Shown: positions 8,794 through 64,000 of the stretch, one piece after another
Layout: each line of letters begins with the position of its first letter
How positions within the stretch are numbered: position 1 is the stretch's first letter
Sequence record: PP301342.1
DNA length: 64,000 bases
DNA from: Escherichia phage UE-M3
Direction: 5' to 3' (one strand)
Position numbers and translations under genes: made by a program
The notes under the pieces: model-generated
What the model saw: only the letters and a program-made list of their open reading frames with translations
Databases searched by the model: none
What the model was told of the DNA's origin: nothing

Positions 8794-8809
8794 ACAGGAA
8801 TAATACGAT

Positions 8810-16753: not shown

Positions 16754-16818
16754 CTTACACTGGCTTACTGTAGAGTAAGCTTTCCATATACGATATAAGT
16801 TTGAACAGGAAACATGCT

Positions 16819-19800: not shown

Positions 19801-22800
19801 GACAAGACACCGAACCAGTTCCTGAAATCATTTACCCTGCCGGAAGAACCTAAGTCTCGCACCATTGGTTCTGAATCCCCTTTGACTGATATTAAGCAAG
19901 CACTGTCTTCTACTGCACGCTTTGAAGCATTCACTCAAAAAGAAAATAACGCTCTCACAAGTGATGTGATTAAGCGTTATCAGGACTTAATGGGCTTTGG
20001 TGAAACTCTGAAGACTACTCTGTCTGATCGTCTGGCTAAGTTTCTTGCTAATAAGAACGTTGGTAAACGCTTTGCAGAAGGCACAGAGGCTAACCGTTGG
20101 GTAGGTGGTAAGTTACTTAATATCGTAGAGAAAGACGGAGACACCTTTAAGTTCAATGACCAGTTGTTAGAGACTGCTGTACTTGCTGGTCTGCAATGGC
20201 GACTGACTGCTACACAGAATGCTGCTGTTAAAGACATGAAAGATGTAGCTGCTATTACTGGAGTAGAAGCATCCTTGTTACCTGAAGGTATCCTGGCTGA
20301 ATTTGAGAATGCTCAGACTCTGGTTGAAGCTACTAACTCACTGGCTCAAAAGATTGAATCTTACTGGGGATTGAATCGTAATCCTAATGCACCACTGGGT
20401 TATACCAAAGGTATTCCAATGGCAATGGCTACAGAGATTCTGTCTTCTCTCATTGAGATGGGTGAAGTTAAAGAGTCTATGCTTGATGTGTCTGAGATTG
20501 ACCCAGACTCTAATAAGACCGTCGGTCTGTATACCATTGAGAAGCTGGATGATAACGATGCCATTAACAAGTTCCCTACTGCTATCGAGGAAGCTGTTCT
20601 CGTAGAACCAGAAGAGAAAATGTACTTTGGTGATGATATTCCTTCCGTGGCTCAAACTCAGTTACGTAACCCTGCTGTTAAGAATACCCCAGAGCAGAAA
20701 GCTGCTCTTAAAGCAGAACAGGCTACCGAGTTCCGTGTACACATGCCGATGGTTAACTTCTATGAAGCATTAGGTCGTGACAACATTCTGGAACTGATGG
20801 GTGCTGGTACTCTTAATCCTGAACTGCTGAACGTGAACACTGCTAAGTCACTGGAGGGTAAAAACCTGTCAGTGTCTATGGCATATGATTCCCTGTTCGG
20901 TGTAATCAACCAGTTACAGGAACAGGAGAATGGTCTGGATACGCCTATTCACTATGGTTACAACATGACCCGTGTAGGTCGTATGCAGATGTTAGGTAAG
21001 AACAACCCACAGTCCAGCAAGCTGGTTCGTGAAGCAATTCTGCCAACCTTCTCTACTATCGACTTAAGTAATGAAAACAGTCAGACGTTCTCTGATTTCC
21101 AGTTAGGTCTGTCTCAGGCATTAGGTATCAAGGTTCATAATATGTCCCGTGAAGCTATGTCTGAAAAACTGACCAAAGCTCTGGAAGGTAATTTGAAACC
21201 TGCTGTTGATATGATGGTTGAGTTTGATAAGTCCGGGCACTTACCAGCCGATGCAGTAGATATTCTTAAGACATCTCTGGGTGGTGATAAATCATTCGTA
21301 GCTCTTATGGCTCTTATGGAGTATGCCCGTTACCTGAACAGTGATGACCGTGCCAACTTTAATACCCCACTGTACGTTGAAGCCGATGGTGTAACCAACG
21401 GACCAATCAACGCAATGGTATTAATGACTGGTGGTAAGTTCACTTCAGACTGGATTAAGAATACTGCTAAAGGTGGTCTGTTCTTCGGTAAAGCTGGTAA
21501 GACTATGAATGAACATCGTTCACAGGATGACAGTGTTGACCTGTATGAAGCATCTACCAATGGTCTGCAACAAGCACTTAATGAGTTACGTACTACTTAC
21601 CGTAACAACGTTCCGGTTATGAACCAAATGAATCATCTTCAGAAGTTAATGGACCTGTTTATTAAAGACTTTAACCTGAATGAAGACGGTACTCTGGACC
21701 TGAAACGTGGTATCGCTAAAAACCCACTGACCATTACCATCTATGGTTCAGGTGCTCGTGGTATTGCTGGCAAGATGGTTAGTGCAATTACTGACACCAT
21801 CTATGAACGATTCAGTGATGTTCTGCAAGCTCGTGCTGCTGACCCTAGCATTTCCCCAGCTATGGCAATGTTTGGTAAGGAGGCTGCGTCTGAGGCTGAT
21901 GCTCAGGCTATGCTGGATACTTTCCTTACTTCTATGGAAGCACTGACTGGTAATGTTCCAGTTATGCGTAAAGGTGAATTGTCTATTCAACAGGTAGAAG
22001 GTGCTCTGACTGGTAAGTTAGACCCTCAGAAGTTTACCGTATCGGGTAATGCCCTGAAGAACTTACAAGAGAACATGCTTCACCTGTTCGTTGAACCAAT
22101 GCGTACTGGTATCCGGAATACTGTTGGGGAAGGTCTGATGCATTCTACTGAGAACTTGCAGAAGGCTACCCAGATTCAGTCTTTGGTTCTACAAGACATG
22201 TTCCAACAAGCAGTACAGGCTAAGCTGGCAGAAAAAGAAAAAGACCCAACCTGGAAGAAGGGTGATTTCTTAACACAGAAAGAACTGAATGAAATTCAGG
22301 AATCATTGTCTCCACTGGCTCCAATGATTGAGACTGGTTCACAGACTTTCTATATTGCTGGTAGTGAGAATACTGATGTTGCTAACCAGGTACTGGCTAC
22401 CAACTTAGATGACCGTATGCGTGTGCCAATGAGCATCTATGCTCCTTCTCAGGCAGGCGTTGCAGGTATTCCATTTATGACCATTGGCACTGGTGATGGC
22501 ATGATGATGCAGACCCTTTCTACTATGAAAGGTGCTCCGAAGAATACCCTGAAAATCTTTGATGGTATGAACATTGGTATCGACAACATCACTGATGCAA
22601 GTCGTAAAGCTAACGAGGCTGTATACACTTCCTGGCAGGGTAACCCTATCAAGAATGTTTATGAGTCTTTTACTAAGTTCATGAAGAACGTAGACTTCAG
22701 CAAACTATCGGATGAAACCAAACAGGCTATCGCTAAATCTGCTCTGGAATATGACCAGCGTGAAGGTGCTACCGATGACCTGTTACGTGTTGGTGCTGAA

Positions 22801-25800
22801 CAGATTGAACGTAACCTGCGTAATATTGCTCTGGGTGTAGATATTCGTCACAAAGTAATGAACCAGGTACAGACTACTGTTGACCAGATGGCTGCTGTTG
22901 GTGCTCCTTATGTGAACAACGGTAAAATCTCTCTGGAAGGTCTGACCGTAGACCAACAAGTAGCTAAGCTAAATGAACTGTTCGATGCTGAATTAAACAA
23001 ACGTCGTGATGCAGTACGTGCTGCTAAAGTAGAACCAGTGAAAGAAGTGCCAGCAATGGAACAGGTTGGTCGTGTACTGAAGTCTGGTGTACGCCTACTG
23101 TCTAATACTGCTATCTCTAAGCTGGCTAAAGAGATGTCTCCGGAACAGCAAGCAGTACTGAAAGAAGTACAGAAATCCCTTGCTGCTAAAGACTATAAGG
23201 TTGTTTACGGTACACCTTCCCAACTGGATGCTTATGCTATTGAGAAGAATATTACTCGCCCAGCACCAGAAGATATTGAAGCTGCTGAAGCTGGTAATGC
23301 GTATGGTTGGACTAACTTTGAAGATAAGACCATCTACTTAGTTACCCCTTCCTTAGAGACTCTGGTTCATGAATTGGTGCATGCTTCTACTTTTGAATCT
23401 GTACTGGCTCACTATGAGGGTACTCCTAATGAAGCGGTCCAGAACATTGAAGACCTGATGAACCAGTTCCGTGCTCTGGATGTTAAGGATGAATCCCCGG
23501 CAGTTCGGGAAGCATATGCAGATGCTCTTAATACTATTAACGGTCATTTATCTAATGGCTTTATTGAGCCAGCAATGGCTAAAGCTGCTGCACTGAATGA
23601 GTACATGGCATGGGGTTTAACCAACCGTGAACTGATTAGTAAGCAGAAGAAAACCACTGCACTTAAGACTATGGTTCAGGCTGTATATGAAGCAATTAAA
23701 CGTCTGGTATTCGGGCGTAAGAAAGCACCAGCTAATGCAGATGATATGTTCTCTGGCTTACTGTTTAACTCGTCCGTAGTTATGCGTGGGCAAGCTCCTA
23801 CTGCTGCTGTAGCCAAAGATACTACTCTGTTCCATAACAAAACGTATGGTGACAATACTCGTCTGGAAGAGCTAGGGAAAACCTTCGATAAACTGATTAC
23901 TGACTACATTGGTTCTGAACCAGTACAGCAAGTAATTCGTAAAGGTAAGTTCTCTGATGCAGTGGTTAATGCGACTAAAGTAACTCGTGATGTTCAGGCT
24001 CATGGCTTCACTATGAATATGCAGGAACAACGTCTCTTTACTAACATTGTTGCTGCTCTGGCTACTGAGGCTGCTATTAATCCTGCTGCTCTGGCTCGTG
24101 CGCAGGAATACTACACACATGTTACTAAGAACCTGACCGTTGAGTCATTCATGGCTGACCCAGATAGTACTAACCCTGCTGACCGTTACTATGCACAGCA
24201 GAAGTTCGATACCATCATGGGTGCTAACAACATTGAGTTTGATTCACAAGGTCGTTCCTCCTTACTGCCTACCTTTATTGGTCTGGCGATGGTAAGTGAA
24301 GAGGTACGTAAAGTGCTGGCTGATATTCCAGTTATGAAAGTAGACAAGAAATCTGGCAATACCGCTGATGCAATGCTGACTAACATCGGTACTGCTGCAA
24401 TGGCTAGTCTGAATGCTCGTGTAGCAGGAGATACTAAAGCTACCAACGTACAGGAAGGTATGGATGCACTGGCTCAGACAATCATGCAGACCAGTCTTAA
24501 TGCACAATCCTTCTATGATTCCGTTGCTACTCCTACGGGTAATGCTATTGATCGTGCTAACCAGTATCTGGTGGACTCTATTGATGTACTGTCTACCCGT
24601 GCTTTAGAAGGTGCTCGTGAAGTTGCAGCTAATACCAAGAACCCGTTGGTTAAAGGTGCTGCCCATGCTGCACAATTAATAGCTGCTATTGCTACAGAGA
24701 AGAATGGTGCAATCGTAGCCGAAGGTGTTATGGCTGCAATGAACCAAGGTAAAGTATGGCAACCCTTTCACGATCTGGTTAATGACTTAACTGGTCGTAC
24801 TAAGAGTAATGCTTCTGTATATGATTTGATTAAGGCAGTGCGTGCCCAGGTACAGGCTGACCGTCAACAGTTCCGTGAACATCTGCCCACCACTATCGCA
24901 TCTAAGTTCAGCCGTAAGCTGACTAATGATGAGTGGAAAGCAATGCATACCGGTATGGGTAAAACCGACTTAGCTGTTCTGCGTGACACTATGTCTCTGG
25001 GTGAAATTCGTGACTTGCTGACTGACCAAAAGATTGTTGACCGTGAAGTGAATAAGCTGGAAGCAGATTTGCAGAAACAAGCAGGACGTAACTGGCCTTT
25101 GATTAGCCGTAAATCTAAGCAACTGGCTCAGTACATGATTAATGGCACAGTTGGTAATAACTTGCTGCGTAATGCTACTGCAATCTCTCGTATGCTGGGT
25201 GAACGACAGGCTGCACGTTCTACTGTAGACGTAGCTCAACTGGATAAACTGATTACTCTGTATGCACTGGAAGCAATGAGTAAGACTGACCGTGAGATGT
25301 TATCTTCACTGGCTCAATCAGAAGCTGATGGGATTGATTTTGCTACTTCTTATCTGGTTGGACAGCGTAAAGATGAAATGGCTAAAGCCAAATCTGACAT
25401 GCGTGCAACCCTGAACCAGTACAAAGGGTATATTCCTGGTGAGACTAAACAGGGTGTTAACTTGATTGTTGCTGAAGATAGTCAGTTTGCTGATTTGATT
25501 GAGAAGTCCTATGTACGTCTGGGTACTTATCAGGGTAGCTCTGCTAATCGTGGTCCAGCACGTAGCTACTACTTTGCACCGGTACAGGCACAGGCTCCAT
25601 TCTCGCAAGGTATCTTACAGAACGTTCGCAATACTGCTGGTGGTGTAGACCTTGGTACAGGCTTTACGATGGGTACAATGGTAGCTGGTCGTATCACTGA
25701 CAAGCCTTCTGTAGACCGTATCACTAAAGCACTGGCTCGCGGTGAACGTGGTAATGAACCACTGCTGCCTGTATATGATGATAAAGGCAATGTGGTTGCT

Positions 25801-27171
25801 TATGAGCAATCTATTGACCCTAACATGCTGAAGCACATTGAGGGTGAGAACCATCTCGCTCGTGCAATCGGTGTATGGCGTGGTCGTCAGGTAGAGGAAG
25901 CTAAGGCTCAGCGTTTCAACGATATGCTGATTGAGAACCTGCATAGCATGTATAAAAACGACATTAAAATGTCTGCCTCTAACAAGTCACAGTACGTTAA
26001 CCTTCTTGGTTCTAAACTGGACCCAGTAACTGCTGATGCCCTTAAGCTGATGAACAGTGAAACTCGTCAGAAAGCAGAAAGTCTGTTTGGTCCTGGTGAG
26101 TTGTGGGTACGTCGTGACATGCTGAATGATGCACTGGGCTATCGTGCAGCTTCCGTAGGTGATGCCTGGTCTGGCAATTCTCGTTGGTCACCAGAAACAC
26201 TGGATACCTTCAAGAAAGCTATGTTGGGTGTATTCGGCAACCGTGCTTATAAGTATGTAATGGGTGGTGAGAACCTGGTTCAAAACTTAGTTAAAGAAGC
26301 TAAGACTCTGATTGTAGTTAAATCAGTAGTTGTTCCTGCTGTTAACTTCCTGGCTAACCTTTACCAGATGGTTGGTCGTGGTGTACCTGTTAAGAACATT
26401 GCTAAGAGCATTCCACAGAAGACTGCTGAGATTAACCAGTACCTGAAATCTCGTCTGCGTCAGGTAGATGCAGAAGCAGAATTACGTGCAGCTACTAACC
26501 CGAACCAGATTCGTAAGCTTAAGGCTGAAATTCAGTCCATCACTGATAGTCATAAGCGTATGAGTATCTGGCCTCTGTTAGAAGCTGGTGAGTTTTCTTC
26601 AATTGCAGATGCTGGTATTGGACGAGATGACATCCTGATTACTGAAGGTAAACTTCACGAATACATGGATAAACTGGTTGATAAGTTACCTAAGTCTGTA
26701 CGTAATGCTGGACGTTATGCCCTTATCACCAAGGATACTGCTTTATTCCAGGGTATCCAGAAGACGGTTGAGTACTCTGACTTTATTGCTAAAGCAATCA
26801 TCTATGATGATTTGACTCAGCGTAAAGGTAAGACTCGTGAAGAAGCACTTGGACGTGTAACGGAAGAGTTCATTAACTATGACCGTCTGCCTGGTCGCTT
26901 CCGTGGGTATATGGAAAGTGTTGGTCTTATGTGGTTCTATAACTTTAAGATTCGTTCTGCAAAAATTGCAGTATCCATGATTCGTAACAACCCGGTACAC
27001 GCAGCTATGGCTATGTTGGCTCCAACTCCTACCATGTTTGGTAATGTTGGTTTACCTATTCAGGACAACATCTTCAGTATTGCTGCACAAGGCAATCTCG
27101 GTTACTCCTGGGGCTTCGGTCAGGGACTTCGTGCCCATAACCTTAACCCTTGGCTCAATCTAGCTAACTAA
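16819..27171 (+). CDS. Giant virion RNA polymerase (N4 gp50-like vRNAP)
   Basis: Uninterrupted ~10.4 kb ORF (3450 aa from ATG 16819; track start 16801 is TTG); size and position after capsid/virion genes match N4 vRNAP (~3500 aa as recalled); hairpin promoters for such an enzyme found elsewhere in window. Confidence 0.85.
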   Translation: MSTFDRLAGFADSITNAKQVDVSTATSQKQAAQGQSPFQLTPENAYNLQTGRVGNLGIGAFEPGSLQADFTQASPLEILNKYGNEQGLQILNSRANAADAVRQDLSKQRTNAEAFGDTLSGVGLGVANTLGGIAALGTGLVNDNAGASIASGMDWLNEGVHNLQSDALNATRKVVQNQNQISAQKNQRLYEEDIKNGENDLVASLSRIGRDAFDSVANTLNNGMAATDGLSEGVGSLFTGGPLIRGVSALGKVMVGGDKAVKGITLAAELGSRPAQVALSAGRVAAPAIAIGGMEAGGAYQQTASEIMKMSHQELASKSPVYQQHIADGLSPDEARRQTASETGIIAAGLTAPVAAATGPLVSKFELNPLKVGSLAGAGSNMLRETVEEGIQSGTSQFAQNKAIQGNVDAKRDLLKGVGEQAGLGALYGFGSAGVAQAPGTTVKAVGASAGPALRTTLAGASLVGSALAKAASPITNILVQRGEEVAKRNEQASPVSDATVNAAAQEATAQAEQAQATVQEAVDAMDISPEDKAAATQYAADLTQAMKFDPVELEQANPAIREAVSGSTNRVEAIQKMADLVNTAEDPNVQMEAAIQMYDNIMSMDSFINRDPGALANLEQGSPAANIVDQFSGLMANVQNTPKVLRAFRAIHSMIQEQAEAGKLKATEEANQAQANNIAMAADMSPEVLDADSVNMVLKHASEGKITLGNRQRAALQSAAALLQGAREFDAKAEELGLRPQDIVSKQIKTDESRSNEGQYSALQHAKRIRSAYNSGNFDLASAYLDDFMKFAQHMQNKVGALNEHLISGNADKNKSVHYQALTPSREWVRSRTGLGVNPYDTKSVKFAQQVGLEAKTVADIANALATAYPELNVSHVKVTPLDSRLDKPAAQVVKEFRQGGLDATQSQQTNEPVNQVDETPAPAQETTTTVQPKAKPVVENKTVPVKEASSKAEEVSTTKSETVDATLTNEDTTQKVAETKTEMETVFPVYNNDKTPNQFLKSFTLPEEPKSRTIGSESPLTDIKQALSSTARFEAFTQKENNALTSDVIKRYQDLMGFGETLKTTLSDRLAKFLANKNVGKRFAEGTEANRWVGGKLLNIVEKDGDTFKFNDQLLETAVLAGLQWRLTATQNAAVKDMKDVAAITGVEASLLPEGILAEFENAQTLVEATNSLAQKIESYWGLNRNPNAPLGYTKGIPMAMATEILSSLIEMGEVKESMLDVSEIDPDSNKTVGLYTIEKLDDNDAINKFPTAIEEAVLVEPEEKMYFGDDIPSVAQTQLRNPAVKNTPEQKAALKAEQATEFRVHMPMVNFYEALGRDNILELMGAGTLNPELLNVNTAKSLEGKNLSVSMAYDSLFGVINQLQEQENGLDTPIHYGYNMTRVGRMQMLGKNNPQSSKLVREAILPTFSTIDLSNENSQTFSDFQLGLSQALGIKVHNMSREAMSEKLTKALEGNLKPAVDMMVEFDKSGHLPADAVDILKTSLGGDKSFVALMALMEYARYLNSDDRANFNTPLYVEADGVTNGPINAMVLMTGGKFTSDWIKNTAKGGLFFGKAGKTMNEHRSQDDSVDLYEASTNGLQQALNELRTTYRNNVPVMNQMNHLQKLMDLFIKDFNLNEDGTLDLKRGIAKNPLTITIYGSGARGIAGKMVSAITDTIYERFSDVLQARAADPSISPAMAMFGKEAASEADAQAMLDTFLTSMEALTGNVPVMRKGELSIQQVEGALTGKLDPQKFTVSGNALKNLQENMLHLFVEPMRTGIRNTVGEGLMHSTENLQKATQIQSLVLQDMFQQAVQAKLAEKEKDPTWKKGDFLTQKELNEIQESLSPLAPMIETGSQTFYIAGSENTDVANQVLATNLDDRMRVPMSIYAPSQAGVAGIPFMTIGTGDGMMMQTLSTMKGAPKNTLKIFDGMNIGIDNITDASRKANEAVYTSWQGNPIKNVYESFTKFMKNVDFSKLSDETKQAIAKSALEYDQREGATDDLLRVGAEQIERNLRNIALGVDIRHKVMNQVQTTVDQMAAVGAPYVNNGKISLEGLTVDQQVAKLNELFDAELNKRRDAVRAAKVEPVKEVPAMEQVGRVLKSGVRLLSNTAISKLAKEMSPEQQAVLKEVQKSLAAKDYKVVYGTPSQLDAYAIEKNITRPAPEDIEAAEAGNAYGWTNFEDKTIYLVTPSLETLVHELVHASTFESVLAHYEGTPNEAVQNIEDLMNQFRALDVKDESPAVREAYADALNTINGHLSNGFIEPAMAKAAALNEYMAWGLTNRELISKQKKTTALKTMVQAVYEAIKRLVFGRKKAPANADDMFSGLLFNSSVVMRGQAPTAAVAKDTTLFHNKTYGDNTRLEELGKTFDKLITDYIGSEPVQQVIRKGKFSDAVVNATKVTRDVQAHGFTMNMQEQRLFTNIVAALATEAAINPAALARAQEYYTHVTKNLTVESFMADPDSTNPADRYYAQQKFDTIMGANNIEFDSQGRSSLLPTFIGLAMVSEEVRKVLADIPVMKVDKKSGNTADAMLTNIGTAAMASLNARVAGDTKATNVQEGMDALAQTIMQTSLNAQSFYDSVATPTGNAIDRANQYLVDSIDVLSTRALEGAREVAANTKNPLVKGAAHAAQLIAAIATEKNGAIVAEGVMAAMNQGKVWQPFHDLVNDLTGRTKSNASVYDLIKAVRAQVQADRQQFREHLPTTIASKFSRKLTNDEWKAMHTGMGKTDLAVLRDTMSLGEIRDLLTDQKIVDREVNKLEADLQKQAGRNWPLISRKSKQLAQYMINGTVGNNLLRNATAISRMLGERQAARSTVDVAQLDKLITLYALEAMSKTDREMLSSLAQSEADGIDFATSYLVGQRKDEMAKAKSDMRATLNQYKGYIPGETKQGVNLIVAEDSQFADLIEKSYVRLGTYQGSSANRGPARSYYFAPVQAQAPFSQGILQNVRNTAGGVDLGTGFTMGTMVAGRITDKPSVDRITKALARGERGNEPLLPVYDDKGNVVAYEQSIDPNMLKHIEGENHLARAIGVWRGRQVEEAKAQRFNDMLIENLHSMYKNDIKMSASNKSQYVNLLGSKLDPVTADALKLMNSETRQKAESLFGPGELWVRRDMLNDALGYRAASVGDAWSGNSRWSPETLDTFKKAMLGVFGNRAYKYVMGGENLVQNLVKEAKTLIVVKSVVVPAVNFLANLYQMVGRGVPVKNIAKSIPQKTAEINQYLKSRLRQVDAEAELRAATNPNQIRKLKAEIQSITDSHKRMSIWPLLEAGEFSSIADAGIGRDDILITEGKLHEYMDKLVDKLPKSVRNAGRYALITKDTALFQGIQKTVEYSDFIAKAIIYDDLTQRKGKTREEALGRVTEEFINYDRLPGRFRGYMESVGLMWFYNFKIRSAKIAVSMIRNNPVHAAMAMLAPTPTMFGNVGLPIQDNIFSIAAQGNLGYSWGFGQGLRAHNLNPWLNLAN

Positions 27172-55940: not shown

Positions 55941-56136
55941 AGTTGTTTACACAGTAGATAGCAAAAGCTATCCATCCTGCCATTACAAAGCATCCTAGTG
56001 AGTATGCTCCATAGTAGCAGTAAGCAAACTTAGACTTGTGGGCACGAACTATCGTAGCCAGAATCAGTACAGATAAAACTATCAGTATTAGCTGAGAGAT
56101 TACTTCAAAATTGATAAGCATAGTTGCTACCTCCAA
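55939..56136 (-). CDS. Small membrane protein
   Basis: 65 aa, two hydrophobic segments. Confidence 0.4.
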   Translation of the reverse strand: MEVATMLINFEVISQLILIVLSVLILATIVRAHKSKFAYCYYGAYSLGCFVMAGWIAFAIYCVNN

Positions 56137-56179
56137 GCAAAAAATAAAGCCCCACTCCCGAAGGAATGAGGCTAGTTTA

Positions 56180-57397
56180 TTAACTTAATGCATAATCTGT
56201 TTCTAGAATGTCTTGCCAGAGGCTGTCATCCAGCTTACCAGCAGAGAACTCTTGTCCCAGTACTTGAGACAGAATGAAGCCCAGTAAGTCACTCTTAGCA
56301 ATGTCAGACAGAATCTGATTGTACTGACGACGCAGGTCATTACCATAGTTAGGGTGGCAACGGAAGCAATCATGTACAGTCATTACAGGGAATGGTTTCT
56401 TAGGCATAGTGTCGATCATATCTGCTACTACTTGACGGTCTACCAATGCAATAGTATTCGGGTCAAGGAAGTCTAGGATAGACAGCGACAGGAATCCTGA
56501 CCTTTCATAATGATTCCAGATTTCCATAGTCTTCTCTTGGTTCCCCTCAATAACGGGGTATTCACTTGGCCCGATATCGCACAGTTCCCGTACATAGGCA
56601 ACCAGTTTAGGGTCGAAGTTACAACGACGTAGCATCTCACGTACTACCATCCCATCAATAGAGTGAGTGATGTTAGCAGAGAGCATACGGGTCTTCTCTT
56701 CAGTACCCTGAACCATACGAGTGATGTCAAATGGTTTACCCAAGAAGTTAACAGTCTGTACTTCAAGAACCATGACTTTAATGACAGCATGGAAGTTGTC
56801 AGGGAGTACCCATATGTAACGGTTAGCATCCGGGTTACCACATTGCAGTAAGAACTTGTTAAGTGCCCAAGGACCACTTGCAACTGTTTCCATTACATTT
56901 TCAAAAGTCTTGAGACGGATACCTTCCCCGAATACTTCTTTAGGTTTGGCTTCTGAACCGTAGAATGCAGTCATAACTGCCTGCTTGGTATCACTACGTT
57001 TAATACGGGATGCTTCACCAAGGATGTCCAGCATCTTGTGATATATAACTGTATAAGCATCACGTCGTAATGGCTTACCATTCTCTCCCATGTAATTAAC
57101 TACGTTACACAGTTCAGCAGCAGAGCGGTCACCAGTCAGGCAGGCCAGTAACTGCAAGCCTGATGATGTAGCATCCAGGGCTACGGCATATCCGATAGGC
57201 TTACCAGCTTTCATATCTTTCCATGCGTTTACACCAGCATAGAACAGTGCAGATTCCTCAGCTTCATCTACCAGATTAAGCAAGTTAGCTTCATTCTCAT
57301 CGAACCAAGCAATACGCTCATCCCAGGTCTTTTTATCCAGACCATAGTTATTGGCGATGTCTACTTTCAGGTATTCTTTAGCGGTTAACAGTTGCAT
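56180..57397 (-). CDS. Phage RNA polymerase II catalytic subunit (T7-like single-subunit RNAP palm/fingers)
   Basis: Track start 57478 overlaps HNH gene; ATG 57397 has AAGGA Shine-Dalgarno giving 405 aa (N4 p7 recalled ~404 aa); motifs VALDATSSGLQ, KQAVMTAFYGS, TVHDCF. Confidence 0.75.
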   Translation of the reverse strand: MQLLTAKEYLKVDIANNYGLDKKTWDERIAWFDENEANLLNLVDEAEESALFYAGVNAWKDMKAGKPIGYAVALDATSSGLQLLACLTGDRSAAELCNVVNYMGENGKPLRRDAYTVIYHKMLDILGEASRIKRSDTKQAVMTAFYGSEAKPKEVFGEGIRLKTFENVMETVASGPWALNKFLLQCGNPDANRYIWVLPDNFHAVIKVMVLEVQTVNFLGKPFDITRMVQGTEEKTRMLSANITHSIDGMVVREMLRRCNFDPKLVAYVRELCDIGPSEYPVIEGNQEKTMEIWNHYERSGFLSLSILDFLDPNTIALVDRQVVADMIDTMPKKPFPVMTVHDCFRCHPNYGNDLRRQYNQILSDIAKSDLLGFILSQVLGQEFSAGKLDDSLWQDILETDYALS

Positions 57398-57443
57398 TTT
57401 ATGTTCCTTAGCGTCTGAGCCATTTGGCTCGCATAGTGGGTAG

Positions 57444-57950
57444 TTATTGACCGTGACGGTTAGTATAGCCAGCACCATTCTGGTTCAAGGCTTCTAACAT
57501 GTCGGCTCGTGCATCACATGCTTGTTGGAATGCGAACTCGTAGCCGTATTTCTTAACTGAGAATACTTTACACCTCTGTTTCTTTGTGATGTTGTCCGTA
57601 CATGTAGCACGCCAGAATAACCCCTTTGGTGAATCCCATAGAGATACACCAGTTACCCCAGATTTATTGTCTGAACGTTTAGTAGAGTTACGCAGGTTGA
57701 CTACAATGGGAACACATCGCAAGTTACACCAGCGGCAGTCCGTTCTGATACCGTTGATGTGGTCAATTGTATAACCAGCAGGGATAGATCTATGCTTCAT
57801 TTCCCACAACCAACGGTGAAGGTATAAGATTTTATTTCCACGAGAGATGCGAATGTACCCAGTGGCACTATTCGCTGCCTCCGGTGGATGGGCTACAGCA
57901 AGTTCATCAACTGACTTGTTCCAGTAGCCCATTGGCATACGCTCTTTCAT
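57444..57950 (-). CDS. HNH homing endonuclease with AP2-like domain, inserted between the two RNAP II subunit genes
   Basis: 168 aa; IDHINGIRTDCRWCNLR HNH motif and SGVTGVSLWDSPKGLFWRA AP2-like; start overlaps upstream stop. Confidence 0.75.
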   Translation of the reverse strand: MKERMPMGYWNKSVDELAVAHPPEAANSATGYIRISRGNKILYLHRWLWEMKHRSIPAGYTIDHINGIRTDCRWCNLRCVPIVVNLRNSTKRSDNKSGVTGVSLWDSPKGLFWRATCTDNITKKQRCKVFSVKKYGYEFAFQQACDARADMLEALNQNGAGYTNRHGQ

Positions 57951-58768
57951 TAATCCTCATTAACAAGTTCTTTTTCTGCAAATTCTAGGACTGCTTTATT
58001 CCAAGAAGTCCCTTGGTAGTTACAGTGATAGCCCTGAGCGTAAGTACGCCCACGTTTGTCATATTTGTGACCCAGTGAGAAGTTATTACCTTCTTTGGTC
58101 ACTAACTCCATTACTTCCTTAGCAGTACGGCTGTACTTCTCAAAGGCTTTAACACGTTTCTCATATTCCTGACGGGTTTCACCCTCTTTGGGCTTATCCA
58201 TATTAGGACGAGAGTCTTTTACATAGTTAGCAACGTCCCAGTTGATACTTAGACGCTGATTATTCATACGGTTGATGTGATCAAGACAGACATCCATCTC
58301 ATGATGGTTCTTCTTGAGGATGATACTTCCCCTGCTCTCGTAGTAACCTGTATCACGGTTACACAGAACAGGCTTAGGAGCACTTACGATAGGTAATGGA
58401 TACTGGAATGCTTCCAGTTCCATCTGAACATCTTCACTAATCTCGTAGATAACACCGAACTTGTCGATGGTAGGGTCATAGTTGAAGCAGTCATTCTCTG
58501 CCATCTTATACAGACAGTCAGCGATGTACTGAGCATCATCTGAATGGCTCATAAGAGAGCCAATCATAGTCTGAAGGTCAGCACGTTTATGTAGGGCAAT
58601 CTGCACCATTGCATCAATGAGCAGCTTATAATCAATTTCCAAATAGGCAGCGAATGCCTTAAAGTCAATTTCTTCGGAGTCCTCAAATTCCTTCCTCATG
58701 CGAGGGAGTAATTGATTTTTGTTGAAAAGAATTTCGAGTTGCTTCTGATGTTCAATGGATGAGTACAT
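57950..58768 (-). CDS. Phage RNA polymerase II small subunit (N-terminal-domain-like)
   Basis: 272 aa (N4 p4 recalled ~269 aa); AGGAGA Shine-Dalgarno; directly downstream of hairpin promoter. Confidence 0.55.
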   Translation of the reverse strand: MYSSIEHQKQLEILFNKNQLLPRMRKEFEDSEEIDFKAFAAYLEIDYKLLIDAMVQIALHKRADLQTMIGSLMSHSDDAQYIADCLYKMAENDCFNYDPTIDKFGVIYEISEDVQMELEAFQYPLPIVSAPKPVLCNRDTGYYESRGSIILKKNHHEMDVCLDHINRMNNQRLSINWDVANYVKDSRPNMDKPKEGETRQEYEKRVKAFEKYSRTAKEVMELVTKEGNNFSLGHKYDKRGRTYAQGYHCNYQGTSWNKAVLEFAEKELVNED

Positions 58769-58790
58769 CGCTTATTCTCCTAAATGTGAT

Positions 58791-58816
58791 TAATAACCAA
58801 AAGCTGCGGAGCAGCT
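58791..58816 (-). promoter_or_regulatory. Hairpin promoter of N4 virion-RNAP type (P3-like), driving the RNAP II operon
   Basis: agctgc-GGA-gcagct 6-bp stem / 3-nt GGA loop preceded by aaccaaa; 34 nt upstream of gene start 58768. Confidence 0.6.
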
Positions 58817-58821
58817 ATTAC

Positions 58822-59082
58822 CTAACGTTTAGTCCAAAAGGTAATACGAATACTGTTCTCTTGACCAAGGTAGTCAATACGTACATATAAACCATTACCA
58901 CTAAACTCGTTATTTTTCTTCTGGTAAGGCCATACCAGACTACGCATAGGTATTTTAATTAAACCAGATATGTGACCTAGTTTAGTACGATCCTTTAGTT
59001 CGTTTTGTAATGCACAATAGATATCATGCCGTGTAAGTGCTCTGGCTCTGACTTGAGCAGTCCACAGTTCTTCATAAGTCAT
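58822..59082 (-). CDS. Small early hypothetical protein
   Basis: 86-aa ORF. Confidence 0.45.
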   Translation of the reverse strand: MTYEELWTAQVRARALTRHDIYCALQNELKDRTKLGHISGLIKIPMRSLVWPYQKKNNEFSGNGLYVRIDYLGQENSIRITFWTKR

Positions 59083-59084
59083 TA

Positions 59085-59435
59085 TTAACTCCAGTAGTTG
59101 TAAGCATCGCCTAAGTGTTTACGCCATGCTTCGGGTAACAGTACATTTCCGGTTACATTAATGAACTGGTATGGGTCCAGGTAGTCATTACTCATGACTT
59201 TGAAATCCCATTGTGGATTGGCAGATGCATAAGCAATAAAGCCCTCAATGAAGCCATAGATAGCACCCTCTTTGATACGGTTACCATTGCCATCTCTTAC
59301 TGGAATAGCAAAGCTATTACCATAATGACCATAGGCCATACCCCAACGAGCACCATGCTTCTTATAAGCTAACTTGGCAGAAGCATTGGTATGTTGTCCT
59401 AGTGTATTGGTAGTGAATACGAATATTTCTTTCAT
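59085..59435 (-). CDS. Early hypothetical protein
   Basis: 116-aa ORF. Confidence 0.45.
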   Translation of the reverse strand: MKEIFVFTTNTLGQHTNASAKLAYKKHGARWGMAYGHYGNSFAIPVRDGNGNRIKEGAIYGFIEGFIAYASANPQWDFKVMSNDYLDPYQFINVTGNVLLPEAWRKHLGDAYNYWS

Positions 59436-59438
59436 TAG

Positions 59439-59819
59439 TTACCCCTTTGGATTCTCCACAAAGTAGTTATACATAGCTTTTACTAGCTTCTCTTTAATAA
59501 CCTCACCATGACATGGTTTCGGATAACAGAAGCACTGTAAGGCCAACCCTTTCTCATCAATGGCTTTATTACCAAGACGATTAAGTTCATCCAATACAGC
59601 TTGATTCTTCCTCATGATTTGTTCATTAAGCCATACTCGATATTTGGTTATAACCTGTTCTCTTGAACCGTCTTTACCAATAACGAATGGATTTCCTAAT
59701 GGTGAACCACGTCCGATATACTCACCGGATTTACCGTGATGTTTATTAACAATGATAATTGGACGTGCAGCTACACCCAGCAAAGCATTGGTGTCGTCCC
59801 CTAATGTAATAGTCTTCAT
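59439..59819 (-). CDS. DUF4326-like protein (GNPF and C-x-P-x-x-CHG motifs)
   Basis: 126 aa; GRGSPLGNPFVIG and CYPKPCHG. Confidence 0.45.
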   Translation of the reverse strand: MKTITLGDDTNALLGVAARPIIIVNKHHGKSGEYIGRGSPLGNPFVIGKDGSREQVITKYRVWLNEQIMRKNQAVLDELNRLGNKAIDEKGLALQCFCYPKPCHGEVIKEKLVKAMYNYFVENPKG

Positions 59820-60058
59820 GGTTTTAATGCCTCAATAGATGTACTTACTTTACATACAGTAGTTCCTTCTAATGCGTCTATTTTGTAAGCTAACCCTCTT
59901 GTTAACATTACCCCGTTCATTACTTTATTAACCTCTTCTAGGTTAGGTACAGAAAATGCTTCATTTAATACGGGAGTTGTATGCCAATCTATATAATCAT
60001 CCGGCATAGCTATAAAATCATCCCCCTTTTTGAATACATAATATTCTTCATAAATCAT
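59816..60058 (-). CDS. Small early hypothetical protein
   Basis: 80-aa ORF, 4-nt overlaps both sides. Confidence 0.45.
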   Translation of the reverse strand: MIYEEYYVFKKGDDFIAMPDDYIDWHTTPVLNEAFSVPNLEEVNKVMNGVMLTRGLAYKIDALEGTTVCKVSTSIEALKP

Positions 60059-60369
60059 GGCTTAAGTACCTGGAATGCGAACACAGGACGTTTACTACGC
60101 CACTGGTTCATAGCTAGTTCACTAGTTTCAGAACCATCATGTAAGTCATAAATGAATGAGATTACATAGTCTGGTTCTTCCGGGAAGTTCTCTGTAGAGA
60201 ATGGTAGACCTGATTCTTTAAGGATAGGAACCAGTGGAGATTCAGCATTGCAGTAGAGGGTAAATTCTTCATTGAATGCCTGGCTTGTTTGAGATACATA
60301 ATCAATATTACGCATCATTTTATCTACATCTGTAAATGTAGAATCATGAACTACTAGAATAGTTTTCAT
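60055..60369 (-). CDS. Early hypothetical protein
   Basis: 104-aa ORF, coupled overlaps. Confidence 0.45.
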   Translation of the reverse strand: MKTILVVHDSTFTDVDKMMRNIDYVSQTSQAFNEEFTLYCNAESPLVPILKESGLPFSTENFPEEPDYVISFIYDLHDGSETSELAMNQWRSKRPVFAFQVLKP

Positions 60370-60620
60370 ACCTTTCTCAATGTCCCATAGATGTTATTAT
60401 CGACAATACTCAAATCACAAAAACCAATTTCTTCTTGTCTCCCAGAGGATACCCAGATATTGTTTTCTGTTAGCTTAGGCTTCTTAGAGAATCCTATTAA
60501 TGAGGTATTAGCACTTTTATATTGACGTGGTAATAAAGCTATATACTTAACCCAGTGAGGTACTTGAATGGTGTGCTTCATATATTCCACAGTCTTGCCT
60601 GTAGGATATGTAATAATCAT
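60366..60620 (-). CDS. Early hypothetical protein
   Basis: 84-aa ORF. Confidence 0.45.
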   Translation of the reverse strand: MIITYPTGKTVEYMKHTIQVPHWVKYIALLPRQYKSANTSLIGFSKKPKLTENNIWVSSGRQEEIGFCDLSIVDNNIYGTLRKV

Positions 60621-60977
60621 TTAGTACCTCACAACGTATACGGGTTTATTAAGCCTATACATGATATCAATCATGTGCTTGGTTCCTTTGGAATTACCAT
60701 CCCAGAAACATACAGCAGCATCTGCAAATTCACCCATTTCCAGGTTACGTTTATAACCAGCACATTTACCATGTTTATCCCAGTTTGCTGGGAAATTATG
60801 AATAGGCATTTTGTTATTAGCCCATAGACTATATGCAAGCATATCTGCTCCACGAGCCATACCACATACTAATTCCGGACATTCAGGTATATTCCCTGAA
60901 TTTACTAACTTCTGTAATTCCTCAATCATAAGATTGGTATTTACGAAGTCTCTTCCACCAGCTACGATTAGTCTCAT
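60621..60977 (-). CDS. SLOG/DprA-like Rossmann-fold protein (DUF2493-like)
   Basis: 118 aa; LIVAGGRDF...LVCGMARGADMLAYSLWA resembles DprA/LOG-like nucleotide-binding loop. Confidence 0.4.
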   Translation of the reverse strand: MRLIVAGGRDFVNTNLMIEELQKLVNSGNIPECPELVCGMARGADMLAYSLWANNKMPIHNFPANWDKHGKCAGYKRNLEMGEFADAAVCFWDGNSKGTKHMIDIMYRLNKPVYVVRY

Positions 60978-61195
60978 TTCTGATACCCCTGTATATAGTT
61001 AATACGGCGAATACGTTGAGTAGATGCCTTAACAGCCATCTGTTGATTTTCTTCTTTACGCTGGTTTTCCAACAGCTTATCCCATTCTTTCTGGTTCCGT
61101 TGTTTCTGTAATATACGACTACAACGCTTATGATTAGCAACTCCTTTACGTTTGTTACATACAGGGCAAACACCATAATCAGTTGAGTACATCAT
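60974..61195 (-). CDS. Small basic Cys-containing protein (possible zinc ribbon)
   Basis: 73 aa; CPVCNKRKGVANHKRC. Confidence 0.4.
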   Translation of the reverse strand: MMYSTDYGVCPVCNKRKGVANHKRCSRILQKQRNQKEWDKLLENQRKEENQQMAVKASTQRIRRINYIQGYQK

Positions 61196-61196
61196 T

Positions 61197-61442
61197 TTAG
61201 TTGAATCCGTAATAGTTAAAGTAAGGAGCCTTTCTGTCTTCAGTTGATTTGATAATCACTGATTCATCTAGAAAGTACATCTCATTATTAATACGTACTT
61301 CTCTGTAAGATAACTTACCAAAGTTACGTATATATACCTTTCTAACATATACCTTACGGGTATGCTTTAGCATGAACCAGGCATACCCTTTGGGATTTAC
61401 TAATATTGTTTTATCTACGATGACATCACTAAGATTGTTCAC
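61197..61442 (-). CDS. Small early hypothetical protein
   Basis: 81-aa ORF. Confidence 0.45.
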   Translation of the reverse strand: MNNLSDVIVDKTILVNPKGYAWFMLKHTRKVYVRKVYIRNFGKLSYREVRINNEMYFLDESVIIKSTEDRKAPYFNYYGFN

Positions 61443-61743
61443 CGAGTGCCTCCATCAGTATTTTACGAATAACGTTAACATCAGATTCAGTACCAATTAA
61501 ACCAACAGGTTTACCTGTACTATCAGTTACAAAGCCAGCAATCCTTTCCATCTCTGCTGTAATTAACTTGTCACCATTAATAAGACGATTACGAAGGTAA
61601 GCTTCATAAGCTACCTCTATATCTTCTACTGTGGTTCTTTCATTACGAGCAAATGGATTACTTAATGGGAATGGTAAATGTACCCGTATATTCCTGTCAG
61701 CTACTTTAGCTTGGTGAGGAAGTATACATACTATTTCATTCAA
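61429..61743 (-). CDS. Early protein with NPF motif resembling N-terminus of the DUF4326-like protein
   Basis: 104 aa; PFPLSNPFARNERTTVEDIEVAYEAYLRNRL parallels GSPLGNPFVIGKDGSREQVITKYRVWLNEQI of 59439..59819. Confidence 0.4.
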   Translation of the reverse strand: MNEIVCILPHQAKVADRNIRVHLPFPLSNPFARNERTTVEDIEVAYEAYLRNRLINGDKLITAEMERIAGFVTDSTGKPVGLIGTESDVNVIRKILMEALGEQS

Positions 61744-61779
61744 GATTATTTCTCCTATTTAAATACATATCTAACTATT

Positions 61780-61818
61780 CAAAAATAAAAAATAGGAGCC
61801 TCCTATTGGAGGACTCCT
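61780..61818 (-). terminator. Rho-independent terminator (minus strand), imperfect stem
   Basis: aggagcctcc-tatt-ggaggactcct with A-rich run on + side. Confidence 0.45.
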
Positions 61819-61820
61819 TA

Positions 61821-61949
61821 CTATTTGATACATGGATGATTGTAAGTAACAATCTTACGTACTGGTTCAGATGTCTGTTGCTTAGCAGCCAGACGTTCCT
61901 TCATCTTCTGTACGTCAGCTTTGGTTCCCATGATTAATGACTTACGCAT
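61821..61949 (-). CDS. Small ORF (42 aa) with Shine-Dalgarno, below track cutoff
   Basis: ATG 61949 with GGAG 8 nt upstream; basic peptide MRKSLIMGTKADVQKMKERLAAKQQ...; just downstream of tandem repeat. Confidence 0.3.
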   Translation of the reverse strand: MRKSLIMGTKADVQKMKERLAAKQQTSEPVRKIVTYNHPCIK

Positions 61950-61992
61950 GTTTGGTACTCCACATAAAGTTAAAAGGCTTGTTGTTGTTACG

Positions 61993-62102
61993 TACAATTC
62001 TTACAACCATTTGATAGCCATTGAGTTGTACAACACCATAGTGTCGTTACAATTCTTACAACCATTTGATAGCCATTGAGTTGTACAACACCATAGTGTC
62101 GT
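61993..62102. repeat. Perfect 55-bp tandem direct repeat (2 copies), each containing palindrome gttgtacaac
   Basis: 61993-62047 identical to 62048-62102 (tacaattcttacaaccatttgatagccattgagttgtacaacaccatagtgtcgt). Confidence 0.85.
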
Positions 62103-62169
62103 TTCTGTACACCAGTGTGATATCTACGAAAGATACATTCTTCAATGGCATCCTCAATGTTAGTGAATA

Positions 62170-62388
62170 TCACTGGTTCCTCTTTGCAAACTCTTCTGCT
62201 TCTTTAGCCCAGAGTTGCTTACGTACCTCTTTAGCTATGATGGAAGCAAACAGACACTTAACGAATACAACTGGTAACTTACAAATAAGTACCAGCTTAG
62301 TTCTTACCCACTTGGCTCCATTGAGAATGTAACCACGTAGGCGATACAGCACATAACAGAGTATTACAAACGCAATGAAGTCCAACAT
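62170..62388 (-). CDS. Small membrane protein
   Basis: 72 aa; hydrophobic N-terminus LDFIAFVILCYVLY. Confidence 0.35.
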   Translation of the reverse strand: MLDFIAFVILCYVLYRLRGYILNGAKWVRTKLVLICKLPVVFVKCLFASIIAKEVRKQLWAKEAEEFAKRNQ

Positions 62389-62392
62389 AGTC

Positions 62393-62578
62393 TTACACCT
62401 TATGAAGTTTACGGATTTGTTTACGAGTAGGTTTAGCTACAAAGAAGTGGTCATAATGCTGACCATTCTTATCTTCTACAGATACCTGCCAACGAGCATT
62501 AAGAGACATCTTACTACCCCAAGGTTGTAACATAACAATCAACTTTTGTGAGTTATAACGGTTACATACTGTACGCAT
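62393..62578 (-). CDS. Small hypothetical protein
   Basis: 61-aa ORF. Confidence 0.35.
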   Translation of the reverse strand: MRTVCNRYNSQKLIVMLQPWGSKMSLNARWQVSVEDKNGQHYDHFFVAKPTRKQIRKLHKV

Positions 62579-62680
62579 AATGGTTACTCCTTCATCTAAT
62601 ATAAATCTATATCTATCTGGTTACTGTTTCAGTACCCTTCGTCTAAAGATACTCAAAAAGTAGAAATAGATTATCGTCTA

Positions 62681-62712
62681 GTTAAAAATAAAAGACTCCC
62701 CGAAGGGAGTCT
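62681..62712 (-). terminator. Rho-independent terminator (minus strand)
   Basis: agactccc-cgaa-gggagtct stem with gttaaaaataaa on + side. Confidence 0.6.
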
Positions 62713-62721
62713 AGTGGTTGA

Positions 62722-63105
62722 TTAGAAAGTCAGTTTACGAGCATATTTATTCTCGTCTGCTGGGATGTCAGCAGCCTCTGCTTTCACACGACGAAGTTGA
62801 ACTTGCAGGTTAATGATACCTTCTTCACCAGGTTCCAGGTTCTGAGCATATTCAATTAACTGTTCCAACAGGTCGTTCTGTGCACAACGCATAGCACGGA
62901 AGTCAGCATTGCTGCTATTAGTAGGCAGCGGCTCCTGAGTATCCAAAGGAATACCAGTAGGCAATGAGATGAATTTCTCATCATCAGAGCCTTCATTAGC
63001 TACATAACCAATGTTCAGCCAGAACTGAGCTTTAGGCTTATCAGTTTTAGCAGTAGAAGTAGCAGCAGCGTTAGATTGACCGAAAGTGAATTTTTGAATA
63101 GACAT
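62722..63105 (-). CDS. Early protein, first gene downstream of P2-like hairpin promoter
   Basis: Track start 63204 lacks Shine-Dalgarno; ATG 63105 has GGAGAG 6 nt upstream; 127 aa, acidic C-terminal half. Confidence 0.5.
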
Positions 63106-63210
63106 TTTGTACTCTCCAGATAAATGATTGTTTGATTTATGGGTTTGTCCGTCGGTGACTAAACCCAAGAAAAGACTTAAGATTTCAATGATTAGTGGAT
63201 GCATTTAAAT

Positions 63211-63234
63211 CATCCATAAGACGCGGAGCGTCTT
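63211..63234 (-). promoter_or_regulatory. Hairpin promoter of N4 virion-RNAP type (P2-like)
   Basis: catccat-aagacgc-GGA-gcgtctt: 7-bp stem, GGA loop, conserved CCATAA flank; closely resembles recalled N4 early promoter CATCCAAAAGAAGCGGAGCTTCTT. Confidence 0.65.
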
Positions 63235-63238
63235 GGTT

Positions 63239-63442
63239 TTAACTGTTATTAGGTCGGTGCTGTTTGATAGCTTTAAGCAAGGCTATCATGTCATCAATTT
63301 CTTTCTCGTTAAGTTTCCATAATATGGAATCCCCATCAGGGTAACCTTTAGCGGAACCATGATTCACGAGAACTACCCCGTCTACAATTGCTCCAAATAG
63401 TTTTCCTCTTTGGATAGCAATCTTCTCTATGTTAAATGCCAT
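63239..63442 (-). CDS. Small early hypothetical protein
   Basis: 67-aa ORF ending 5 nt before the P2-like hairpin. Confidence 0.45.
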   Translation of the reverse strand: MAFNIEKIAIQRGKLFGAIVDGVVLVNHGSAKGYPDGDSILWKLNEKEIDDMIALLKAIKQHRPNNS

Positions 63443-63498
63443 AAATAGGATTCTCTTAAAGTAGAATAACTATCTACTTTTGACTATCTATCTAATGT

Positions 63499-63527
63499 TC
63501 AAAACAGGAGACTCCGAAGAGCCTCCT
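63499..63527 (-). terminator. Imperfect hairpin terminator (minus strand)
   Basis: ggagactc-cgaa-gagcctcc with short A-run on + side. Confidence 0.4.
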
Positions 63528-63534
63528 AGGTGAC

Positions 63535-63858
63535 TTAGTTTTTAGTCAGGATGTCAATTACTTTTGAATATTCTGCGTTATAGATACGAGCGTTTTCTTT
63601 ATCCTTGCAGAATTCTTCAATACTTTTCTTACGCAGAGTCTCAGTCATAGCTGTCTCCTCTGCCAGTTTATTAACAAAGGTATGCATTTCTAATTTAGTA
63701 CGGATGGCTTGTTTCTCTGCCATAGTACTTACATATGAATTAAGCATACCTACTGCTTTAGTTGCTGTACCGAATGTATCTGCAACAGTAGTAGCAGCTG
63801 AGTTAACAGTACCAAGTAAAGTTCCTGCGGTCATACGTACAGTAGCTTGAGTAGTCAT
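63535..63858 (-). CDS. Early protein, first gene downstream of P1-like hairpin promoter
   Basis: 107 aa; ATG 63858 with GGAG 8 nt upstream; 43 nt from hairpin. Confidence 0.5.
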   Translation of the reverse strand: MTTQATVRMTAGTLLGTVNSAATTVADTFGTATKAVGMLNSYVSTMAEKQAIRTKLEMHTFVNKLAEETAMTETLRKKSIEEFCKDKENARIYNAEYSKVIDILTKN

Positions 63859-63890
63859 GATGATAGCTCCAATAGTTGATGATAGGACGA

Positions 63891-63915
63891 CATGTCCATA
63901 ACATGCGGAGCATGT
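63891..63915 (-). promoter_or_regulatory. Hairpin promoter of N4 virion-RNAP type (P1-like)
   Basis: catgtccata-acatgc-GGA-gcatgt: 6-bp stem, GGA loop, CCATAA flank. Confidence 0.6.
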
Positions 63916-64000
63916 GTAACGTGTAAGGTGGGGTAGGGTAGTGGCTACACCGTCAACATACCGGGGGGGCTAGTTGAGTGTAAGGGTGTAGCCCCAGCCA

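Follow-up and report, generated by a model that had tools for sequence, protein, structure and literature searches.

GGA-loop DNA hairpins of Escherichia phage UE-M3 are probable orthologs of the N4 early promoters P1, P2 and P3

P1, P2 and P3 of coliphage N4 are textbook early promoters. Their use by the N4 virion RNA polymerase (vRNAP) is reportedly covered by Haynes and Rothman-Denes in 1985, Glucksmann et al. in 1992, Dai and Rothman-Denes in 1998 and Gleghorn et al. in 2008. Activity of these promoters needs gyrase-driven extrusion and E. coli SSB (PMC4496689). The polymerase recognises -11A/G, -10G, -8G and +1C in a promoter with a GC-rich heptamer centred at -11 and a 3-nt loop; the loop-closing C:G pair and the 5'G and 3'A of the loop are needed for extrusion and stability, and -10G and -12A form a sheared G:A pair that, with base stacking, stabilises the loop (PMC4496689). 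By homology, vRNAP promoters P1-P4 have been predicted in Klebsiella phage KP8 (PMC6950046) and analogous promoters in Pseudomonas N4-like phages (PMC3715699). In one of the latter, LUZ7, early hairpin promoters were mapped in vivo by ONT-cappable-seq (PMC9163698), and these include two of those predicted for that phage (PMC9163698; PMC3715699). Here we analyzed 64,000 nt of Escherichia phage UE-M3 (record PP301342.1; this whole stretch is called the window), which carries three DNA hairpins with a GGA loop. These hairpins are very probably the early promoters of this N4-like phage and orthologous to N4 P1, P2 and P3.

The phage is placed in Gamaleyavirus, Enquatrovirinae, Schitoviridae, as a G7C-like relative of N4. 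Positions 57500-64000 of the window are 100% identical to the record of Escherichia phage UE-S5a (PP175015.1) apart from one 55-bp duplication. The stretches of that record inspected, the early-gene end and the first 10 kb, contain coding genes only, and the words promoter, hairpin, terminator and vRNAP are absent from the UE-S5a genome paper (PMC11927229). The three instances are unannotated; their kind is fully known and is expected for an N4-like phage.

We number the hairpins sites 1, 2 and 3 in order of their position on the + strand (Table 1). A preliminary description of the window had given their coordinates, the 6, 7 and 6 bp of their stems, the closing GC and the GGA loop, all of which are correct on the + strand. 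The loop centres, position -11 in promoter numbering, fall at 58809 (site 1), 63226 (site 2) and 63908 (site 3). CCAAAA or CCATAA stands 5' of every stem, and its last A or AA doubles as the first stem bases. All three hairpins lie in intergenic spacers upstream of minus-strand genes. They are found on the + strand, the template for the minus-strand early genes, in agreement with the earlier view that the GGA loop is on the template strand for leftward transcription. Site 3 is 93 nt from the genome end, within the terminal repeat.

The preliminary description had likened this architecture to that of N4 vRNAP promoters, and every sequence-level determinant is indeed present at all three sites. 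Each has -12A, -11G, -10G, -9C, -8G, a four-base A/T spacer and a template C at both +1 and +2. The published determinants -11G, -10G, -8G and +1C, together with 5'G and 3'A in the loop and the C:G pair that closes it, are thus found at 3 of 3 sites. The predicted +1 positions on the minus strand are 58798 (site 1), 63215 (site 2) and 63897 (site 3), and the RNAs would begin with GG. The GC-GGA-GC core shared by the three sites belongs to the GCGNAGC DNA mini-hairpins, whose stability is called extraordinary in PMC13037366. Those mini-hairpins are a structural motif rather than a functional family; the promoters require in addition -8G, an extended stem and, at a set distance, +1C.

We scanned the N4 genome (NC_008720) over positions 1-9000 and 25000-60000. 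In the first stretch the reverse complement carries three motif matches, just upstream of gp1, gp2 and gp15 (Table 1), and in 25000-60000 there was no hairpin of the vRNAP promoter type. The 16-mer of site 1, CCAAAAGCTGCGGAGC, is identical to the complementary strand of the N4 P3 match. When the window end is compared with the N4 left end the hairpins are in register, and site 3 aligns base for base with N4 P1. Two stem pairs are changed between the latter two, both in a compensatory manner (G:C to C:G and T:A to A:T), and the loop is GGA in site 3 and GAA in P1. The genes downstream of sites 3, 2 and 1 are 67%, 68% and 67.5% identical to N4 gp1, gp2 and gp15, so that, judged by sequence and gene order, site 3 is the ortholog of P1, site 2 of P2 and site 1 of P3. 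The alignment with P1-P3 proposed in the preliminary description therefore pairs each site with one N4 promoter, in the same gene order.

Like N4, the phage has a template hairpin with a 5-7 bp stem, a 3-nt loop, a GC-GGA-GC core, -11G, -10G, -8G, +1C and an A/T spacer. Also like N4, it has three such sites upstream of gp1, gp2 and gp15 at the first-injected genome end, and P1 is part of the terminal repeat. Reverse-complemented, the window end can be aligned with the left terminus of N4 from base 1 (68% identity over 618 aligned positions), and the window therefore reaches the genome end that is injected first in N4. The two phages differ at P1, where the stem is ACATGC (6 bp) with a GGA loop here and GTTGC (5 bp) with a GAA loop in N4, and at P2, where the AAGACGC stem corresponds to AAGAAGC in N4. 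Sites 2 and 3 have an ATAA spacer, whereas N4 has AAAA at P2 and P3. P2 is also farther from the genome end, at 774 nt compared with 565 in N4, because a 67-aa open reading frame (ORF) is inserted between gp1 and P2.

A 3450-aa vRNAP gene had been reported in the preliminary description. The ORF is found at 16801-27171 and has 3456 codons when read from a TTG; from the N4-homologous Met, codon 7, its length is the one reported. With the N4 enzyme it shares 67% identity overall, rising to 71% within the mini-vRNAP region. We took residue m of mini-vRNAP as full-length residue 997+m, a numbering validated on N4 gp50, where all nine expected residues were recovered. Eight of the nine promoter-contact residues are identical to N4 (K114, R119, W129, K268, K849, K850, D901 and R904), including all five that make base-specific contacts (K114, R119, W129, D901 and R904). 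The catalytic D559 and D951 are also identical. The enzyme has the promoter-reading elements of a cognate vRNAP, namely the -11 recognition element, the specificity loop and the beta-intercalating hairpin, and by this comparison it retains an intact reading head for -11G, -10G, -9C and -8G.

To the window phage and N4 we added 13 relatives, which are genomes or metagenomic viral contigs, some of them represented by two loci, and which include the records G7C, SP5M, KKP 3715, PGN829.1 and PW8. Nine loci were retrieved by the gp15 ortholog alone, and annotated phage records were added by hand. One Klebsiella phage record (L016) gave a patchwork match and contributes hairpin sites only. Except for the distant locus L011, the relatives have three or four hairpins each, which are syntenic and in every case on the strand that is template for the early genes. 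In most Gamaleyavirus relatives the P1 35-mer is identical to site 3. The same motif and synteny are found in other Enquatrovirinae such as KP8, and in G7C, SP5M and the loci ascribed to IME11, ECBP1 and pSb-1. L011, with 56% gp15 identity, has a single canonical hairpin within the retrieved stretch, and its gp15 ortholog has none upstream, even under relaxed criteria. The motif as defined may not hold beyond close genera.

The site alignment contains 34 distinct sites from these 15 genomes. It excludes four relative hits without CC at +2/+1: one G7C site with CG for CC, which is counted in both G7C loci, and two opposite-strand sites with a GAA loop. Invariant in 34 of 34 sites are CC (+2/+1), G-8, C-9, G-10, A-12, G-13 and C-14. 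Position -11 is G in 33 sites, the exception being the A of N4 P1. Variants of the A/T spacer are AAAA, ATAA, TTTA, AATA, TTAA, TAAA, ACAA, CAAA, TCAA and AAAG. The CCA(T/A)AA flank of the preliminary description thus precedes each site of the window, but across the relatives only its CC is invariant. The comparison separates the invariant positions (CC at +2/+1 and GCG-A-GC) from the free ones, which are the A/T spacer and the outer stem pairs.

These outer pairs covary, with G:C/C:G at one pair, A:T/C:G/G:C/T:A at another and T:A/C:G/A:T at a third. Among the 34 sites the pairs -5/-17, -6/-16 and -7/-15 show 3, 14 and 15 double changes, respectively, with zero unpaired cells. Cells with a double change number 36, as against 12.9 in column shuffles, none of which (0 of 500) attains the observed value. 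Pairing falls from 88% to 18-47% once the partner column is slid.

The number of promoters is three or four in these phages because the gp1-gp2 interval is variable. SP5M, KKP 3715 and the metagenomic locus L009 have four canonical sites, the extra one lying in this interval, which holds other cargo in all three. G7C has three canonical sites and a variant in the same interval with CG at +2/+1. The published P2 of KP8, AAGACGCTCCGCGTCTTATGGA, is the reverse complement of site 2; KP8 has four sites by its authors' prediction (PMC6950046), compared with the three unique sites of the window phage. Similar to LUZ7, our phage would combine an injected polymerase with hairpin promoters that have a 3-nt loop; LUZ7 RNAs preferentially initiate with G (PMC9163698). 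LUZ7 differs in having nine early start sites, stems of at least 4 bp and starts 13-14 nt from the hairpin centre, versus 11 nt here by the N4 rule. Its genus and its sequence consensus are also different.

Several points weigh against reading the three sites as vRNAP promoters. Sites were collected by requiring a perfect 5-bp stem, and pairing of the inner five is therefore partly by construction. Independent of that selection are the perfect hairpin no more than 300 nt upstream of the gp15 ortholog in 8 of the 9 gp15-retrieved loci and the compensated changes between site 3 and N4 P1. The starts are extrapolated from N4 numbering, at 11 nt from the loop centre. In the polymerase, K267 of the beta-intercalating hairpin is replaced by N (residue 1238 of the window vRNAP). 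In N4 this is one of two lysines of that element that melt the bottom two pairs of a 7-bp stem. Nearest-neighbour DNA folding of site 3 gave z = -1.17, with 30 of 200 shuffles folding equally well, and the template strand was not favoured over its complement. Folding thermodynamics was dropped as evidence, since it separated neither site 3 from shuffles nor the template from the non-template strand. Lastly, sites 1 and 2 fit a crude terminator pattern.

It is highly improbable that the hairpins are RNA-level intrinsic terminators or insulators between early units and not promoters. On the minus, RNA-sense strand a terminator scan does flag site 1 (AGCTGCTCCGCAGCT then TTTGGTTATT), and on the + strand it flags site 2, where GTTTTAACTG comes next; site 1 ends a long early ORF run just before the gp15 ortholog. 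However, site 3 is so near the genome end that no unit lies upstream of it, and there is no terminator match there, while the match at site 2 is antisense, on the gene-free strand. The T-runs are short and interrupted, that in the sense direction at site 1 being UUUGGUUAUU. On the sense strand only site 1 matches, and the sites do not fit a rho-independent terminator, in which a GC-rich stem of the RNA runs directly into a U-run at a unit end. The region has canonical terminators of its own, which the scan placed separately at 62693-62712, 61799-61812 and 56148-56173. Termination would also leave unexplained an asymmetric GGA loop, a -8G and a CC at a fixed 11 nt that are invariant across the 34 sites.

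Covariation of the stems bears on whether the inverted repeats could be double-stranded operators for a dimeric regulator of the phage or the host. Short perfect palindromic arms with a fixed 3-bp spacer just upstream of genes would suit such a role, but one constant arm sequence would then be expected. Instead the arms differ among sites and relatives while their complementarity stays, which argues for selection on intrastrand pairing. The GC-GGA-GC centre is, moreover, asymmetric and always oriented with the downstream gene, and the homologous N4 sites are experimentally established as single-strand hairpin promoters (PMC4496689). We consider operators extremely improbable and retain the assignment of the hairpins as probable early promoters.

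The signal at the three sites is the combination of core, stem and flank, which is highly specific. CCAWAA-N3-GCGGAGC has three matches in the 64 kb on both strands and none in 100 dinucleotide shuffles. In the genome scan that the preliminary description had suggested, the motif is therefore not at background frequency. Another scan ignored the flank but required a closing GC, a GNA loop of 3 nt and a stem of 5 bp or more without mismatches; it found exactly the three sites on the + strand, with no match on the - strand anywhere in the window. By first-order Markov simulation, 0.17 sites with stems of 5 bp or longer would be expected; three were attained in 0 of 300 runs. The GCGNAGC core is not enriched in the window (10 observed, 11.7 expected); seven of the ten cores have stems of 2-3 bp and three have stems of 6-7 bp. 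The genome beyond the window contributes only the terminal-repeat copy of site 3. Chance palindromes in AT-rich intergenic DNA are a practically negligible explanation even though the heptamer GCGGAGC alone is not enriched (4 observed, 2.6 expected) and perfect stems of 5 bp or more around a 3-nt loop number about 110 per strand of the window, for this reading is refuted by the shuffles and simulations of the combined architecture and by the syntenic conservation of the sites in N4 and more than a dozen relatives.

Each step of the mechanism has been shown experimentally in N4, and extrusion, SSB dependence, binding and start sites in our phage are proposed by homology with it. On infection, the right-hand genome end would be the first part to enter the cell, accompanied by the injected 3450-aa vRNAP. 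Host gyrase would supercoil the incoming DNA, and the inverted repeats would extrude as cruciforms. E. coli SSB would then melt the non-template hairpin with its TCC loop, while the unusually stable GGA-loop hairpin of the template would persist. The polymerase is predicted to bind this hairpin through -11G (W129 stacking and R119), -10G (K114), -9C/-10G (D901) and -8G (R904), and binding would unlock its active site. RNA synthesis would start leftward on the template C 11 nt from the loop centre, at the positions given above. The early transcripts would encode gp1, gp2 and the middle polymerase RNAPII (the gp15 and gp16 orthologs), leading to the next stage. Architecture, statistical specificity, orthology, stem covariation and the conserved reading residues of the polymerase were observed directly, and they support the view that the phage runs the injected-polymerase early programme of N4. 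The main value of these sites would be in annotation, as three precise predicted early starts for a therapeutic-candidate phage; the current understanding of N4 biology is unchanged.

Table 1. Features of the window and the corresponding N4 promoters. Positions are those of the window unless N4 is named.
Feature	Position	Strand	Description
Site 1 (predicted N4 P3 ortholog)	promoter 58797..58816, hairpin 58802-58816	+	CCAAA-AGCTGC-GGA-GCAGCT, 6 bp stem
Site 2 (predicted N4 P2 ortholog)	promoter 63214..63234, hairpin 63218-63234	+	CCAT-AAGACGC-GGA-GCGTCTT, 7 bp stem
Site 3 (predicted N4 P1 ortholog)	promoter 63896..63915, hairpin 63901-63915	+	CCATA-ACATGC-GGA-GCATGT, 6 bp stem
N4 P1	N4 93-108 (hairpin at position 96)		template CCATAA-GTTGC-GAA-GCAAC
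N4 P2	N4 562-577		template CCAA-AAGAAGC-GGA-GCTTCTT
N4 P3	N4 4551-4566		template CCAA-AAGCTGC-GGA-GCAGCTT
vRNAP	16819..27171	+	3450 aa counted from the conserved Met; matches solved N4 vRNAP structures over its full length
gp1 ortholog	63535..63858	-	107 aa, first early gene, downstream of and putatively driven by site 3; 67% identity to N4 gp1
gp2 ortholog	62722..63204	-	160 aa, downstream of and putatively driven by site 2; 68% identical to N4 gp2 across residues 1-160, N-terminus included
gp15 ortholog	57950..58768	-	RNAPII subunit, downstream of and putatively driven by site 1; 67.5% identity to N4 gp15
Terminator-like hairpin and U-run after gp1 ortholog	63500..63527	-	AGGAGGCUC-UUCG-GAGUCUCCU-GUUUUG, read from sequence
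Terminator-like hairpin after gp2 ortholog	62693..62712	-	8 pairs then TTTATTTTT; SP5M terminator annotated at the homologous place
Direct terminal repeat	63600..64000	.	401 bp, contains site 3; identical to PP175015.1 1-401

The gene downstream of site 3, the gp1 ortholog, is labelled hypothetical protein in PP175015.1. Its predicted leader is 39 nt with a GGAG Shine-Dalgarno. The gp15 ortholog, downstream of site 1, is labelled "RNAP1" (RNA polymerase) in GenBank records including PP175015.1 and has a predicted leader of 30 nt with an AGGAGA Shine-Dalgarno. The gp2 protein of N4 is a cofactor of the middle polymerase RNAPII. For its ortholog the annotated ATG at 63204, which is conserved with N4, lacks a Shine-Dalgarno and lies 11 nt from the predicted start. 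Residues 1-33 read from it are about 50% identical to N4 gp2 (MHP..EIL..LGL.TD...LSGEYKM). An internal ATG at 63106 has a strong GGAGAG Shine-Dalgarno and would give a leader of 109 nt. The gp2 mRNA may thus be nearly leaderless, with 63204 and 63106 as the candidate starts. The preliminary description had placed the hairpins 34-115 nt from their genes; site 2 fits this range only if gp2 starts at 63106, as the annotated start is 14 nt from the stem. Searches of Pfam gave no match for the gp1, gp2 and gp15 orthologs or for the 67-aa ORF.

The hairpin at 63500-63527 is likely to form the end of the P1 transcript, given its place after the gp1 ortholog. It was missed by the consensus terminator scan because its stem has one mismatch. 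The homologous place is an annotated terminator in SP5M, and N4 has a counterpart near 490-520. Similarly, the hairpin at 62693-62712 is the likely end of the P2 transcript. Overall, terminators in the region follow the gp1, gp2 and gp16 orthologs, with one more inside the early ORF run, and three of these four places are annotated in SP5M.

The early region also holds genes of other kinds. The 67-aa ORF (63239-63442, minus strand) lies between the gp1 terminator and site 2 and has no hairpin promoter of its own; tblastn gave no homolog of it in N4 or the other relatives compared. An HNH homing endonuclease gene at 57444-57950 on the minus strand separates the genes of the gp15 and gp16 orthologs, both RNAPII subunits. 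G7C and PGN829.1 have an HNH gene at the same place and N4 does not.

In nearly all relatives the template strand continues after the P2-class and extra hairpins with a conserved GGTTTT(T), around -19 to -25 (63235-63240 in the window). Alignment columns 29-35 read GTAACGT at P1-class sites and ATTACCT at P3-class sites. The GGTTTT(T) could be an upstream promoter element, the tail of an antisense terminator or plain orthology.

The terminal repeat duplicates site 3. Identity between the window end and the start of PP175015.1 ends at record position 402, and the UE-S5a genome paper gives direct terminal repeats of 401 bp (PMC11927229). A second copy of site 3 is at position 309 of PP175015.1, outside the window. 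Since site 3 is inside the repeat, a fourth hairpin copy is therefore expected at the other end of the virion DNA. The count of three, which the preliminary description had matched to N4, holds for unique sequence, but the virion DNA has four hairpins. The repeat also contains the first 86 or so codons of the gp1 ortholog. PP175015.1 annotates a + strand ORF (6-251) in it, which is probably spurious.

That the hairpins do more than start early RNA, site 1 as a weak terminator or insulator and the second P1 copy as the source of a run-off RNA, is doubtful. Site 1 (P3) may also weakly terminate or insulate against read-through from P2, as its RNA-sense strand has a 6-bp stem then UUUGG. The second P1 copy, in the other terminal repeat, faces the genome end and, if it fires, may yield a run-off RNA of about 298 nt. 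Such an RNA would encode the first 86 or so gp1 codons with no stop codon. Neither role is described in the N4-like phage literature covered.

Between sites 1 and 2 the window has a perfect 55-bp tandem duplication at 61993-62103 (2.0 copies, 100% match), which is single copy in PP175015.1. Its length is not divisible by 3, so that UES5a081, a small early ORF, undergoes a frame shift. In the near-identical UE-S5b and PBM-3 the matched spans are shorter than the query by 56 and 114 bases, respectively, judged from the spans alone. The duplication may be a real variant or an assembly or data difference.

An Rfam search of 56000-64000 gave no match. About 35 nt from the genome terminus, at 63961-63969, is a run of seven G (ccggggggg), and N4 has a matching homopolymer run, CCCCCCCCC on its + strand, at about 30-40. 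The run may be linked to end recognition or packaging. Next to site 3, at 63890-63895 (transcribed +3 to +8), is a palindromic hexamer, ACATGT, that resembles the arms of the site (ACATGC/GCATGT). It permits alternative pairings with site 3, and the minimum-energy fold of 63890-63924 gains an outer helix. ACATGT is present in N4 as well, despite the different N4 stem.

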